Shown here piece after piece: positions 42,072 to 52,382 of a DNA stretch of 64,000 nt. Origin of the DNA: Dehalococcoides sp. JdFR-54 (GTDB lineage: Bacteria; Chloroflexota; Dehalococcoidia; JdFR-54); NCBI GenBank assembly GCA_002011475.1, contig MTNP01000051.1:8694-72693 (forward strand). The letters run 5' to 3'. The position numbers and the translations under genes were made by a program. Each line of letters starts with the position of its first letter. Position 1 is the stretch's first letter. Under the pieces are notes generated by a model. That model did no database searches. It had not been told where the DNA came from and was given only the letters and a program-made list of their open reading frames with translations.

Positions 42072-42320
42072 ATGCCTGTGCTTAACGGCTACTTCAATAT
42101 CGTTGAAGCCGCCGCTTTTCTCGGTGTTCACCCGGAGACCGTCAAGCGACTGTGCAGATCGGGGCGGCTTCGGGGGGAGAAGATTCACAACACCTGGTTA
42201 ATCCATATTGATCAACTTGAGCTCTTCAAAGGGAATTACCACGAGAATAGAGGGCGACCGCCTCAAGTCAAACGCCCCTTATCCGCGAAGCAACTCACAT
42301 CGGGGGCGCCACATGCCTGA
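42072..42320 (+). CDS. Excisionase-like HTH DNA-binding protein
   Basis: NIVEAAAFLGVHPETVKRLCRSGRLRGEKIHNTWLI. Confidence 0.82.
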   Translation: MPVLNGYFNIVEAAAFLGVHPETVKRLCRSGRLRGEKIHNTWLIHIDQLELFKGNYHENRGRPPQVKRPLSAKQLTSGAPHA

Positions 42321-45300
42321 CGGGCGAGGTTCCTTGCGAAGCACGCTACATGGCCTCGAGAGGGAAGCGCCCTCCATTGGTGAGGAAGCGACGCTGCGGC
42401 AGAATTTTGTAGCCGCGCTGGACGACTTCCTTCGGGGCTCACTACTAAATCGAAGGGGTGTACACGCGGTCTTGGATCAGCGCATCGTTCGCGGCAAGCC
42501 TGACGCCCGAGTGGGTGGTCTTCTCTTCGAGGTGAAGCTTCCAAGCCCACGCGGTCCTGGCATCGAGGCGGCCATAGCACAGGCCAGCGACTATCTGCAC
42601 GAGTTCCATCAACGCCACCAGCGGCCAGCCAGAGCCGTAGCATACGACGGATTGAGCCTTGCATTCCTTGAAGACGACGGCACCGTCATCCGCAGAGGGC
42701 GCCCTTCGGCTCTTGCAACGGTGCTGGAGTCATGGCTCATCGGCCTGGGCAGCGACATCATCACACCGGACGACTTCGTCGCCAGGCTGGGGCCAGCTTC
42801 TCCGAGGGCACACGAAGTAATGGACGTTCTGTGGCGGTTGTTTCAGGGACAGCGGGGGCAGAACCGCTTTATTGAAGAGGTGTTCCAGGTCTGGCGGGGC
42901 CTCTACGGCGTCACCACTAACCTTTCTGACGAGGCCATTCGCGGCTTACGCCGTGCGGCTGAGAGCATAGGGATCACGATCTCGGGCTCAAGGGCGCAGG
43001 CCGAAGAGTTCCTCTTCATAGTGGAATCTTACCTGGCGGTGCTGCTCAAGCTTCTGGTGGCCAGGGTTGTTGTCCAGCAGCGCCTCACCGATTACCCCAC
43101 ATTGGAAGCTCTGCTGACCGCCGAGGGCAGCCCGGTGCGGGGTATGGAGCAACTGGAGCAGCGGGCCTCTCACGTTCAAGGTGTTTTTGAGGAGGACGTT
43201 TTCCTCTGGCCTGTCCATGCCTCTATTTTCAGCAGGGAGGCTGAGCGAGAGCTCGAAGGAGTGCTTGGTAGTCTGGCTACTGACCTGGATGACGTGGATC
43301 TGGTGGGAGCTCGCCACGACTTCCTGCGTCTGGTCTACCAGCAGTTTCTCGACCCCGTGAGTCGGCGCACCCTTGGCGAATTCTACACCACCGAGGAGCT
43401 GGTCAAAGAGACGCTTGATGCGGTCGGTTACAACGGGGACTTAAGCCGTCGCATCATGGACATATCCTGCGGCAGTGGCACCTTCCTAGTAGAGGCTATT
43501 AGCAGAGCTGTGGAGCAACACCGAGAAGCACCCGTAGCTGACTTGGTGCACCGGATCACCGGGAACATCATAGGCGTGGATATACACCCCTTCGCGGTAG
43601 CCATGGCTAGGGTGAACTACCTAATAGCGATTTCTGGTGTGCTGGAGGCCTCGGAGGCGGTGACCTTCGCTGTGCCAGTCTACTGGGCTGACTCGCTGGC
43701 CAGGTTACGCCCCCAGCAGCCTTCCATGGCAGGGATGCGCCCGCCTATTCCCATTAACCTTCCCAACCTGCCGCAATTCCGACTGCCCGACCCTCGGGAC
43801 GTGGACTGGGGAGACCTCTTCCGGCGGGTGGATGAAGCCGTTGACAGAGTCTCTCGGGTTCAGCGGGGCACTCTGGATCCTCAGGCAGTATGGGCCTACT
43901 TCTGGAGCCGCGCTGACCAGGAGCACTTCCTGCCTCATGAGCAGACGCTACGGGACTTCATCAGTACCGTGGTAAGCCTTCATAATGGGAACCGGGACAT
44001 GCGCTGGGTTCCCCTCCTGCGCAATATCCTGGCCGTTGCCCAGTACCAAGGCTCCTGTGACTACATAGTGGGCAATCCGCCCTGGGTACGCATCCACAAC
44101 ATCAGCCCGGCGATCAGGGAGCGGCTCTTTGGCACCTACCAGACTTACAGAGACGCTGGCTGGCGCCGCGGCGCTTCGTTGGGCGGTCTGGGCCGTGGAT
44201 TCGCCCGGCAAGTGGACTACGCGGTAGCCTTCGTCGAGCGGGGGCTGGAGTTCCTGACGCCCGGTGGGAGACTCGGCTTTGTCATCACCAGCAAGATAAT
44301 GCACGCCCTCTATGGTAGTGCCCTCCGCAAGAAACTGTTGCAGGAAGCGCCGCCAATCCGCCTGGTGGACTACTCCCTTCAGGCTAGGCCAGTTTTCCAG
44401 GACGCCACCAACTACCCTCTCGTGCTGGCCATTGAGAAACGCCCCAGCCAGGATAGCGATGCGACGTCCATCACTGTAGTCTCGCCCCGCGGTGAGCGGC
44501 AAGATTTCACCCTGCCGTCGGCCCGACTACCTCTGCTGGCTTCGGACAGGGAGGCCCCCTGGGCGCTAGTCCCGCCACGGGTCCGTGAGGCGTTCGACCG
44601 AATGCTCACTGGCGAGGAGGGGCGTCCTCGGCGACTTTTGGGAGAGATTCAGGGCTTTCAGGCCCAGATGGGTGTGAAGACAGCCCTCAACAAGGTATTT
44701 CTGGTGAAAAGAGTAGAGCCAGTGCCAGAAGCCCCGGACGAGGTAGTCGTCTACACGGAGGGCTATTACAGCCAACAGGTGCCGGAAAATCAGAAGCACC
44801 TATATAGCGCCAGGGTGGAGAAGATCCTCCTCCGTCCAGTGGTAAGAGGTGCCGATGTGGAGGCTTGGCGTTACCGCCAGCAAGACTACATCCTCTGGAC
44901 CCACGACGACGAAACTGGCCACGTGCTGCAAGACATCTCTCCAAAGGGAAAGGCCTATTTCCAGCAGCACGTCAGGGCCCTACGGCGCAGAGACGATTAC
45001 CACGAGGGGATGCCTATCTGGACAGTCTTCAGAGTGAGACCTGACAAAGTGGGCCCCAAGCTAGTGTGGCAGCGTATCTCGAATGATGTGGAAACACTAT
45101 TCTTACCTCCCAATTTGAGAACAGACATAGTCGAAAGCGGTGTCATACCCATAGATACGGTGAGGGTGATTGCCTTGGATCAGATAAGGGGGCCAGTGGT
45201 AGCGGCATTTCTCAATTCGTTGCCGGTGGGCCTCTATTGTTTGGCCTTTTCGCGGCGAGATCGAGGCGCCTATCGAGATTTGGATGCCTATGTGATAGGG

Positions 45301-50684: not shown

Positions 50685-50717
50685 TCGCTGGGGCAAGAGT
50701 TCGGAGGGAGGAAGAAA

Positions 50718-52382
50718 ATGGAAGTCACAGAGACGCCCAAGGCTAACCCCGAGAACTTGCTGGCTATCATTCGGGATGCGTACGGTGCCAAGGTTGTAAT
50801 CCCCGAGTTCCAACGCTCCTTTGTCTGGGAGCGTGAAAACATTGAGGAGTTGCTAGTATCGATCCTGCAGGGTTACTTCATCGGCACTTTCCTAATGTTA
50901 GACACGTCGTCTGACAAGCCAGTCTTCCCCTTTCGCCCAGTAGAGGGCTTGGAGAAGGTAAGCATGGCAAGGCCCAATGGCCATGCTAATGTTCGTCTAG
51001 TTTTGGACGGTCAGCAGCGCGTTACCTCTCTGTTCTACGTCTTGTACAAGCCGCCGATCCCTTTGAAGAATGCCCACAACCCGTACAGGTTTTACTTTCG
51101 TATAGACCTAGCGCTAGATGGAGATCCTGAAGATGCCGTCTCCGGGGTCTCCCTTGCTGATCGCCGCCGTCTGAGTGAGATGGAGAGTCTAGTAAGGGAT
51201 CACCGGGCAATCAGGTTTTCCCTTTTCAAGGACTCATCCAGCTTTTTCCGCTGGCTTTACAGTGAGCAGCAGTACCTACAAAGCCCGGAAAGCAAAAATA
51301 CTATGGAAGCTTTTTACCATCGTTTCGCCAATTTCATGGTACCGGTGGTTGACTTGTCGCGTGAGTCCAGAAAGGATAACATCGTCAATACCTTCGAACG
51401 TATCAATCGAACTGGAGTAAGCCTATCCCTCTTTGACCTTGCCGTAGCTCGTGTTTACATTAAAGGGATCAGGCTACGTGACCTATGGCGGTCCTTCGAA
51501 CGGGAGCACCGAAAGCTTGCTAGGGCCATCAAACCCGAATTCCTTCTTAAGCTGGTAGCTCTCTTCAAAAGCAAGGAACCAAAGCGTGGCCCGGTGCTAG
51601 ACGTCATAGAAGAAATAGATGGAGCCGAGTTCCTGGACAAGTGGCAGCGAGCCGAGGGCTATATGGTGAAAGCCTACCAGCGTGTCACTGCACCTTCGGG
51701 AGGCTACGGCGCCGTTGACACCCGATGGATCCCCTATTCCACAATGCTCGTGCCTCTAGCAGCCCTCCTGAGAGCCGTAGAGGAGCGGGGAAATGCTGCG
51801 CACCTATATGGGAAGCTGGATCGTTGGTATTGGGCTAGCGTGCTCAGTCACCGGTACGACCAGGCGGTAGACACTCGCACCTTTGAGGATGTTCGTGTTG
51901 TGACGGCGTGGCTAGATGGCGGGCCAGCCCCGCCTTGGTTAGCTAGTGTCTCGCCGCAAAGTATTGACCCCGACGTAGACGAGCCGAGGTCGGCACTTTA
52001 CCGCGGGCTGATGTGCCTCGTAGTCCTCCAGGGTGCAAGGGACTTTATCAACGGACAGCAGGCGAACCTCTTGGAATGTCACGACGACCACATCTTTCCA
52101 AGATCCAAATTCGGAAAACTCGAGCGGGTCAATTCTATCCTGAATCGAACCCTCATTTCTAGGCAAACTAACGAGGTCAAAGGCAACCGGAGACCTTCCG
52201 AATATGTGCCGCTGTTTTTGGAACGGCATGGAAACAACGAGCCCCAGTTCCTTGCAACTTTGAGCAGTCACATGGTTTCTCCCAATGGCTACGAAGCGCT
52301 TAGAGATGACAATTTTGGAAGTTTTCTGGAAGCACGCCGCCAAGCATTCTTGGGGGAAATCCAGCGACAACTAGCAGGATGA
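50718..52382 (+). CDS. gmrSD: GmrSD-family modification-dependent restriction endonuclease (DUF262 + HNH/DUF1524)
   Basis: IPEFQRSFVW, LDGQQRVTS, FERINRTG, DHIFPRS and N...N..KGNRRPSEY motifs. Confidence 0.9.
   Translation: MEVTETPKANPENLLAIIRDAYGAKVVIPEFQRSFVWERENIEELLVSILQGYFIGTFLMLDTSSDKPVFPFRPVEGLEKVSMARPNGHANVRLVLDGQQRVTSLFYVLYKPPIPLKNAHNPYRFYFRIDLALDGDPEDAVSGVSLADRRRLSEMESLVRDHRAIRFSLFKDSSSFFRWLYSEQQYLQSPESKNTMEAFYHRFANFMVPVVDLSRESRKDNIVNTFERINRTGVSLSLFDLAVARVYIKGIRLRDLWRSFEREHRKLARAIKPEFLLKLVALFKSKEPKRGPVLDVIEEIDGAEFLDKWQRAEGYMVKAYQRVTAPSGGYGAVDTRWIPYSTMLVPLAALLRAVEERGNAAHLYGKLDRWYWASVLSHRYDQAVDTRTFEDVRVVTAWLDGGPAPPWLASVSPQSIDPDVDEPRSALYRGLMCLVVLQGARDFINGQQANLLECHDDHIFPRSKFGKLERVNSILNRTLISRQTNEVKGNRRPSEYVPLFLERHGNNEPQFLATLSSHMVSPNGYEALRDDNFGSFLEARRQAFLGEIQRQLAG

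Follow-up and report, generated by a model that had tools for sequence, protein, structure and literature searches.

An integrated element of Dehalococcoides sp. JdFR-54 carries a defence island with a predicted Type IIG enzyme next to an AgaP-family homologue

We analysed a window of 64,000 nucleotides from Dehalococcoides sp. JdFR-54 (contig MTNP01000051.1, positions 8,694 to 72,693 of the forward strand) and, within it, a block of five intact open reading frames (ORFs), here called g1 to g5, which all lie on the plus strand and span positions 42072-52382 of the window. This block rides on a 30.9-kb element integrated in a tRNA-Gly gene (25702-56577). The reading that we favour, and to which we give about an even chance of being right, is that of a defence island composed of three independent units, g1-g2-g3, g4 and g5, in which g3 would act as a second-stage effector behind the Type IIG restriction-modification enzyme g2. 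An initial annotation, made from the sequence alone, had described five co-directional genes with short gaps, whose limits are exactly the start of g1 and the stop of g5, and its four domain calls (Type IIG for g2, PLD/ATPase for g3, HerA-like for g4 and GmrSD for g5) hold in the profile, fold and motif evidence. It had offered two interpretations: a stack of separate modules, which the comparative data support, and one undescribed multi-component restriction system, an idea that it had tied to the genes occurring together elsewhere and that falls, the five-gene set having been found in no independent locus. It did not have three results reported here, namely that g3 belongs to the named and tested AgaP family of the 'APAP' system of prokaryotic Argonaute (pAgo) and phospholipase D (PLD) proteins, that g1-g2-g3 is a recurring sub-unit, and that the block is carried by an element integrated in a tRNA gene.

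The borders of the element are marked by 48-bp tRNA-Gly direct repeats, identical at 47 of 48 positions, and these, together with a tyrosine integrase and a drop in guanine-plus-cytosine (GC) content between the repeats (0.46-0.60, against ~0.62 outside), place the block on integrated DNA; the coordinates of all features are collected in Table 1. Within the block, the ATG start of g2 is backed by homologues that align from residue 1, while for g4 an upstream TTG at 47715 is a possible alternative start, giving a protein of 989 amino acids (aa) and a gap of 88 bp after g3. A consensus scan, the counts of which were at chance level, found no terminator-like site in the gaps among g1-g5 and one promoter-like site upstream of g1.

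The second gene, g2, is by its motifs a Type IIG restriction-modification enzyme, with a predicted nuclease and a predicted methyltransferase in one polypeptide. It matches Pfam Eco57I and N6_Mtase, and the REBASE-derived PADLOC model REase_MTase_IIG (PDLC03630) over its full length (2.8e-85; the PADLOC version used dates from 2023). The chain begins with a PD-ExK nuclease, continues with a gamma-class N6-adenine methyltransferase and ends in a specificity region, and 20 homologues of 40-80% identity all keep the motifs D64-x8-E73-x-K75, DxxCGSGxFL and NPPW without change. The same PD-ExK, gamma-class methyltransferase (NPPW) and specificity region in one chain (~1090 aa in g2) characterise the Type IIG/IIL enzymes of the MmeI and Eco57I class, from which g2 differs in forming a distinct subfamily: a sequence search finds no MmeI structure, and the nearest solved methyltransferase domains are those of CamA and BseCI. 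Unlike that class, the lineage of g2 has a translationally coupled helix-turn-helix (HTH) gene and an AgaP-like gene. The g2 family is usually solitary, and relatives of 62-70% identity stand alone among housekeeping genes.

For g3, which found no match in our local copies of the Pfam, PADLOC, NCBIfam and PHROGs profiles, sequence comparison points to a full-length homologue of the AgaP family with conserved HxK and S-x-N residues. Aligned with AgaP of Natrinema pellirubrum, it gave an hhalign probability of 100% (E 2.6e-68, 611 columns end to end, 31% identity), and the reciprocal tblastn gave 7.6e-62. A tblastn search of plasmids recovered full-length relatives of 26-30% identity on haloarchaeal replicons, three of them directly downstream of a Piwi-domain gene; the N. 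pellirubrum AgaP gene is among these three, a 717-aa ORF with H105, K107, G157, S158 and N160, which matches the numbering of PMC11442185. In that study AgaP alone is toxic via its HxK/GSxN PLD centre, the toxicity is suppressed by a catalytically active pAgo partner, and restriction of plasmids requires the PLD centre (PMC11442185); an ATPase or helicase domain of AgaP is not mentioned (PMC11442185, mLife 2024). Homologues of g3 carry the Pfam family PF27394 'Aq_aa27', with at least 193 full-length matches, mostly in Chloroflexota and Elusimicrobiota.

The g3 protein has an HxK...S-x-N PLD motif together with Walker A and Walker B. In an alignment of 18 sequences the residues H116, K118, S134, N136, K393, D437, D438, S472 and N473 are invariant, and they remain so among 60 sequences except for S472, which is conserved in at least 90%; GxxxxGK[ST] and FDD are invariant in both alignments. 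The T-S-N at positions 471-473 is what we take to be motif C of superfamily 3 (SF3) helicases. An AlphaFold2 (AF2) model (mean predicted local distance difference test, pLDDT, 83.6) divides the protein into a Nuc-like single-HKD PLD nuclease at ~25-180, a linker, a D5/Cch-type SF3 helicase/ATPase at ~340-530 and a C-terminal domain. Searches of the PDB by sequence, single and profile, returned nothing, and the structural matches come from fold comparison only: Foldseek matched the PLD part to SauUSI (7clg, 9e-9), the NgoAVII R-protein (4rct, 1.6e-6), Nuc, Tdp1 and PLD-type synthases, and the rest to the SCCmec Cch helicase (1.4e-6) and to the SF3 helicases E5 of monkeypox virus (MPXV) and D5 of vaccinia virus, while a viral structure library returned phage primase-helicases. 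With Walker A, Walker B and motif C all present, the C-terminal module is modelled as a D5/Cch-type SF3 helicase/ATPase. Single-HKD PLD nucleases dimerise to form their active site, as Nuc does, and g3, having a single HKD, would have to dimerise likewise.

In its HxK/S-x-N catalytic residues and its P-loop module g3 resembles the AgaP of the APAP system, as it does in its place, directly downstream of a co-directional gene for a catalytically competent primary nuclease, from which a short gap separates it. The ~35-residue acidic insert that parts HxK from GSxN in the N. pellirubrum protein is absent from g3, its partner is a Type IIG restriction-modification enzyme and not an Argonaute, and most of its relatives are partnerless. 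A tblastn search with the Argonaute NpAgo was empty in the window and in the bacterial g3 loci, and matched only the haloarchaeal plasmids (L138-L140); no Piwi domain was matched among the scanned genes of the window. The locus, with no adjacent long-A Argonaute (Piwi, DEDX tetrad), is not an APAP system. SauUSI and NgoAVII/CglI, ATP-dependent restriction enzymes that include the top structural matches of g3, also join a Nuc-like PLD nuclease to a motor ATPase; their motors are SF2 or helicase-like, whereas that of g3 is a D5-type SF3 module, and neither the modification-reading domain of SauUSI nor the B3 DNA-binding domain of NgoAVII was recognised in g3. We also considered g3 as a replication gene of phages or plasmids and rejected this, as no relative was found in the viral contigs of IMG/VR and the plasmid matches are only the haloarchaeal AgaP genes and one short match in Thermus. 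On a plasmid of Halobaculum marinum (L137, NZ_CP119991.1, 6947-16007) metallophosphoesterase genes flank an AgaP-like gene that has no Argonaute and stands directly upstream of Mre11-like, SMC/Rad50-like, NurA and ATP-binding (possibly HerA) genes, an end-resection cluster that fits a role at DNA ends.

The case for a link between g2 and g3 comes from gene order. A methyltransferase gene followed by a g3-like gene was found in six distinct loci, always co-directional, with the methyltransferase first and 26-73 bp between the two. Besides the window (g2, with g3 itself at 100%), these are L132, where the nearest relative of g2 (g2 type, 80% identical) precedes a protein 48% identical to g3; L048, with a distant IIG enzyme (26% identical to g2) and a g3-like protein at 67%; and three loci with a Type_ISP_C type methyltransferase, L004/5/8 (~1033 aa and not detectably related to g2; g3-like protein at 57%), L006 (56%) and L141 (59%). 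The methyltransferases fall in three lineages, and the flanks of the pairs vary, with AbiU2 and Druantia genes, a Mokosh-like helicase-PLD gene or a PRiA4_ORF3 gene. The whole sub-unit g1-g2-g3 recurs in L132, with the AgaP-like gene 36 bp after the methyltransferase gene and then a gene on the opposite strand. The identities within the pairs do not match, which shows that partners have been exchanged under a constant arrangement, and these comparisons argue for a link that is functional or at least operonic. The PD-(D/E)xK motif is kept in both of the methyltransferase lineages checked (g2-type and Type_ISP_C-type), so each paired methyltransferase is predicted to be a complete Type IIG enzyme; for the same reason we rejected the nuclease part of a 'split Type ISP' arrangement, in which a nuclease-less methyltransferase would be supplied with nuclease and motor by g3.

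The first gene, g1, is by its profile matches a small DNA-binding protein of the HTH_17 (excisionase/MerR-like) kind and probably regulates the operon; the matches are to Pfam HTH_17 (1.9e-9), the NCBIfam model 'excise' and PADLOC mad1 (2.4e-5). Its counterpart in L132 is 66% identical and overlaps the methyltransferase gene by 8 bp, as in the window. In L004 a g1-like HTH_17 gene (51% identical) precedes DruA and opens a Druantia-type cluster (DruA, then large genes; 14475-21971) ~2.5 kb downstream of the pair of methyltransferase and AgaP-like genes; together with mad1, this gene exemplifies what seems to be a repeated use of small HTH_17 genes at the head of different defence operons. Two further neighbourhoods of AgaP-like genes deserve mention. 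Directly downstream of the pair in L006 (8624-11527) lies a gene for a 967-aa protein with AAA_11, AAA_12 and PLDc_2, an architecture like that of Mokosh type II, so that this island holds a second PLD nuclease. In an Elusimicrobiota locus (L017, 7155-11935) a gene for a 948-aa SNF2-family helicase with a SWIM zinc finger ends 4 bp inside the AgaP-like gene, and the SNF2 helicase is a possible further partner class of the AgaP family.

The five-gene block as a whole was repeated in none of the ~50 loci with g3 relatives, the 80 with g2 relatives or the four with g4 relatives. Around g3 relatives, tblastn found no relative of g2, g4 or g5 within 10 kb or less (42 loci from GTDB genomes and five more), and across the ~50 loci a methyltransferase of the g2 family stood upstream only in L132 and, very distantly, in L048. 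Neighbour clustering revealed no recurrent partner of g3, with no family recurring among the 134 flanking ORFs of 38 loci, which a Pfam scan showed to be mostly housekeeping or toxin-antitoxin genes. No g3 relative was found in the 42 loci, of 80 metagenome loci with g2 relatives, that had at least 2 kb of downstream sequence. Neither g3 nor g5 has a relative in the four g4 contexts (L049-L051 and L062), where the sole g2-like neighbour is a divergent methyltransferase on the opposite strand in L062, and beside a g4 relative of 74% identity an unrelated 77-aa ORF stands at the same 33-bp distance in place of the GmrSD gene. An identical copy of the block was present in one marine metagenome run (X2) and a variant of ~90% identity with the order g2-g3-g4 kept in another (X4); the contigs of runs X3-X5 are fragmentary. 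As both runs, X2 and X4, contain this island itself or a close variant, neither counts as independent evidence.

The fourth gene, g4, has a Pfam DUF87/HerA match in its C-terminal half, and its AF2 model (pLDDT 89.4) shows about five helix-helix-hairpin units of winged-helix type at ~14-500, a disordered linker and an ATPase at ~520-985. Foldseek matched this ATPase to HerA of Sulfolobus and Deinococcus and to the HerA subunits of SIR2-HerA, DUF4297-HerA and TdpAB; by sequence, g4 also gives weak matches to CedD, TraD and VirB4. The protein is modelled as about five tandem winged-helix-like units fused to a P-loop ATPase of HerA/FtsK type. Its family is rare, with 154 matches among 1.84e9 cluster representatives and five proteins found in a search of 5.8e9 clusters, and no relative was found in viral contigs or in 72,556 plasmids. 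Both halves recur in other combinations: the ATPase is also found with other N-termini, and the N-terminal region with other HerA, FtsK or TrwB ATPases as well as fused to TIR, HEPN_Swt1 (4 proteins), PLDc_2 (2), Schlafen and ResIII. In the TIR case (P0123, 629 aa, on a 2.6-kb metagenome contig from ENA) the whole array is present, 41% identical over 16-498, and a C-terminal TIR domain replaces the HerA ATPase. Swapping onto effector domains is typical of defence proteins, and that the same module is so swapped suggests that the array is a sensor or adaptor. We consider that g4 belongs to a rare modular family, which appears new within the literature searched. On the L062 contig (6755-17969) the g4-related gene, for a 906-aa protein with a C-terminal half 35% identical to the g4 ATPase, is divergent from a gene for a g2-family methyltransferase (34% identical); the same contig encodes an 866-aa protein with a Cas1 domain at 530-787 that could be a casposase-like or fused Cas1 gene.

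The last gene, g5, is predicted from its DUF262 and HNH/His-Me domains to be a GmrSD-family Type IV enzyme, presumably dependent on modification. It matches Pfam GmrSD_N (1.7e-28, residues 26-245), HNH_4 (6e-4, residues 457-493), PADLOC HEC-05 (7.4e-25) and, in NCBIfam, Cas9-type HNH models. DUF262 (GmrSD_N) and a His-Me nuclease domain in a protein of similar size are shared with GmrSD, BrxU and SspE, to the solved members of which g5 is only distantly related; BrxU is the solved structure closest in sequence (7p9k, 9.4e-5 over ~80 residues), and the C-terminal domain scores as HNH_4/Cas9-type HNH and not as Pfam GmrSD_C. GmrSD enzymes are established single-gene Type IV systems.

The block shares components with several named multi-gene systems and is without the genes that define them. 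The initial annotation had pointed to the absence of DrmA/DrmB, PglZ/BrxC, Sir2, DUF4297 and NurA, and PADLOC and Pfam indeed gave no match to any of them in the nine ORFs scanned (42072-55102). More generally, no component of DISARM, BREX, Hma, Dnd/Ssp or Druantia is among the PADLOC, Pfam and NCBIfam matches listed, which for the PADLOC scan of g2 are the best 25 of 40. For DISARM, those nine ORFs include neither a Drm model among the listed PADLOC matches nor a DUF1998 or DEAD helicase; for BREX there is no PglZ or BrxC, and g2 scores weakly against PglX (46 bits, against a cut-off of 400). In MADS, MAD6, MAD7 and MAD8 are mandatory and MAD2 is the methyltransferase (MacSyFinder model; bioRxiv 10.1101/2023.03.30.534895); the block has no matches to mad3 to mad7, and g2 reaches 42.9 bits where the MAD2 cut-off is 720. 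The methylation-based systems MADS, DISARM and BREX have in common with the block an HTH gene (mad1), an N6-adenine methyltransferase, a PLD protein (DrmC) or a DUF87 ATPase (mad8), which accounts for the weak PADLOC matches to mad1, mad2, mad8 and PglX. The mad8 match of g4 (6e-16) is generic, reflecting a shared ATPase fold, since the TraD-like gene of the element scores better on the same model (6.8e-18). With the model definition and this control in hand, we rejected MADS as a domain-level resemblance.

As for HerA-based systems, the C-terminal HerA fold of g4 with its P-loop motifs is like that of SIR2-HerA, DUF4297-HerA, TdpAB, DndH and the 'capture' systems, in the HerA/FtsK form of which winged-helix arrays also accompany the motor. 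It differs from them in having no SIR2, DUF4297, NurA, DndF/G, Orc/Cdc6 or PglZ partner, and in that the array is fused to the ATPase in one chain of 977 aa and is found elsewhere on TIR, HEPN, PLD and Schlafen. The HerA fold is present, and no partner domain of the SIR2-, DUF4297- or NurA-HerA systems was found in the neighbouring genes; NCBIfam HerA_antiphage_2 gives g4 19.4 bits, against a cut-off of 850.

The remainder of the element (Table 1) indicates that it is probably an integrative mobilisable element. HTH genes are also present on it. A gene for an AAA_5 (MoxR/McrB-like) ATPase with a CbbQ_C tail, followed by one for a 515-aa protein matching no family (34025-37159), has no PADLOC match and could be a McrBC-like or MoxR-partner pair. 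The PIN-domain gene and the 89-aa ORF next to it look like a toxin-antitoxin pair of the VapBC type, and the GC minimum of the window (0.46) falls in this stretch with the IS110-family transposase (37541-39440). The proteasome-like, DUF5678 and protease genes may together be a defence or toxin module based on proteases; in another locus (L124) a gene weakly related to the proteasome-like one was seen near a g2-like methyltransferase.

Table 1. Position of the five-gene block and of other features of the integrated element in the window.
Feature	Position	Strand	Length	Remarks
g1	42072-42320	+	82 aa	
g2	42313-45585	+	1090 aa	8-bp overlap with g1
g3	45659-47626	+	655 aa	73-bp gap after g2
g4	47751-50684	+	977 aa (from ATG)	124-bp gap after g3
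g5	50718-52382	+	554 aa	33-bp gap after g4
Left attachment-site repeat	25702-25749			copy of tRNA-Gly 3' part; left end of element
TraD/TrwB-like ATPase	26193-28466			on element
Short second integrase	29171-29734			on element
Replic_Relax gene	30923-31765			on element
IS110-family transposase	37541-38593			on element
PIN-domain gene	38740-39165			on element
89-aa ORF	39171-39440		89 aa	adjoins PIN gene
Proteasome beta-subunit-like gene 1	39466-40194	-		on island
Proteasome beta-subunit-like gene 2	52539-53288	+		directly after g5
DUF5678 gene	53254-53679			after second proteasome-like gene
Retropepsin-like aspartyl protease	53670-54083			after DUF5678 gene
Tyrosine integrase	55304-56404	-		Pfam Phage_integrase 4e-36 and SAM-like N-domains; adjoins tRNA
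Right attachment-site repeat	56530-56577			tRNA-Gly 3' part; direct repeat of 25702-25749
tRNA-Gly(CCC)	56531-56605	-		integration target; ARAGORN

We hypothesise that the island works as follows. In the first unit, under the small HTH regulator g1, g2 would be a self-sufficient Type IIG enzyme that methylates adenine in the recognition sites of the host, and its own PD-ExK nuclease would cut invader DNA that lacks the methylation. AgaP reinforces a catalytically active Argonaute, and on this analogy g3 could be a second-stage effector that loads on DNA nicked or cut by the primary nuclease, moves along it with ATP and degrades it through the PLD site formed by dimerisation. As the second unit, g4 is a candidate single-protein system, in which the winged-helix module may sense nucleic acid or a phage cue and a hexameric motor of HerA type would act on DNA. 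The third, g5, would cut DNA with modified bases and so cover phages that escape the first unit by DNA modification; a Type IIG enzyme and a GmrSD enzyme together make a predicted coverage of unmodified and modified DNA reasonable. Several points weigh against this picture. For both families the g2-g3 link is found in a minority of loci: in the unbiased GTDB set only ~2 of the 22 g3 loci that extend far enough upstream have an adjacent methyltransferase, and the count of pairs is biased by L048, L132 and L141 having been picked as nearest relatives. Most contigs are short and the absences therefore partly reflect the limits of the data, the g4 contexts number only four, and the biology of AgaP is known from one haloarchaeal system only (PMC11442185). 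With short gaps and no terminator-like site between the genes, g1-g5 may moreover be co-transcribed, and hence cross-talk functionally.

It is also possible, in a tentative way, that the block consists of four independent modules, g1-g2, g3, g4 and g5, with g3 a stand-alone ATP-dependent PLD nuclease of the SauUSI type that lies beside g2 through the clustering of defence genes. Most g3 relatives are indeed solitary, often between housekeeping genes (DnaE, ArgJ, GltX, KatG), its top structural match SauUSI is a single-chain Type IV enzyme of PLD and ATPase, and the g2 family is self-complete and usually solitary. What speaks for a partnership instead is that the six pairs keep one order and orientation with their short gaps across three methyltransferase lineages and variable flanks, that AgaP, toxic by itself, acts together with a partner nuclease (PMC11442185), and that the relative in L017 overlaps an SNF2 helicase gene; the methyltransferase pairs, the partnership of AgaP with pAgo and the SNF2 overlap together suggest that the AgaP family tends to take partners. 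A different division, in which g4 and g5 would form a two-gene 'capture' system and the HerA-type translocase would reel in foreign DNA for the GmrSD nuclease, we regard as improbable. It is modelled on HerA serving nuclease partners in TdpAB, NurA-HerA and DndFGH-like systems, and draws on the 33 bp between the two genes, on the match of the g4 fold to defence HerA complexes including TdpAB, and on the description of systems combining HerA/FtsK, multiple winged HTH domains and a nuclease (PMC10853773, PMC12839542). Against this, a GmrSD gene occurs in none of the four contexts related to g4, the relative of 74% identity has its unrelated 77-aa ORF at that very distance, GmrSD enzymes are known single-gene systems, and the swapping of the N-terminal module onto effectors suggests that g4 is self-contained.

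Improbable too, in our view, is that g1, g3 and g4 serve mobility or replication, as an Xis-like HTH, an initiator joining a nuclease to SF3 (HUH-SF3 Rep-like) and a DNA-transfer ATPase of FtsK/HerA type. SF3 helicases are typical of the replication proteins of mobile elements, the viral structural matches of g3 are primase-helicases, g4 matches CedD, TraD and VirB4 weakly, the element itself carries an integrase, a TraD-like ATPase and a Replic_Relax gene, and similar mobile operons with HerA/FtsK, a D5-type SF3 helicase, an Xis-type HTH and a Y-recombinase have been described (PMC10853773). However, the tested relative of g3, AgaP, is a defence nuclease (PMC11442185), g3 relatives lie singly in chromosomes without other mobility genes and none was found in IMG/VR, the N-terminal module of g4 is fused elsewhere to TIR, HEPN, PLD and Schlafen, its relatives are missing from the plasmids and viral contigs searched, and a coupling-protein and relaxase-like module is already present at the other end of the element. 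To the single multi-component restriction system made of g1-g5 we give very little credence: the genes are co-directional and tightly spaced without internal terminators, and g2-g3-g4 keep their order in X4 as in the copy in X2, but these are not independent of the island, no independent locus repeats the set, and each component is distributed separately.

The locus is a variant combination of known kinds and not a categorically new system. What appears new within the literature searched is that AgaP proteins are widespread outside archaea, independent of Argonaute, SF3-bearing and repeatedly placed behind Type IIG enzymes. If the link between g2 and g3 is not functional, the locus is a defence island of the usual sort, if a well-stocked one, carried by a mobile element. 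If it is functional, AgaP would not be an Argonaute accessory but a widespread ATP-driven PLD nuclease recruited by different immune sensors or nucleases, the reading of APAP would change with a helicase motor added to its mechanism, and the pair would amount to restriction-modification in a simple two-gene form that brings its own 'shredder'. The fourth gene points to a rare family in which the sensor is modular and the effectors can be exchanged. Going further, one may speculate, and we consider this possible if doubtful, that the AgaP-family PLD-SF3 protein is a plug-in second-stage nuclease motor for unrelated primary nucleases, and that g4 founds an undescribed family of single-protein defence systems. 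Were this so, haloarchaea would pair the AgaP-family protein with Argonaute and Chloroflexota-type genomes with Type IIG enzymes from at least three lineages, SNF2 helicases being perhaps a further partner; once the first cut is made, the motor would break down the invader DNA processively, in the way Cas3 follows Cascade, and proteins like g4 would couple a five-fold winged-helix sensor array to interchangeable outputs, among them a HerA motor, TIR, HEPN, PLD and Schlafen.

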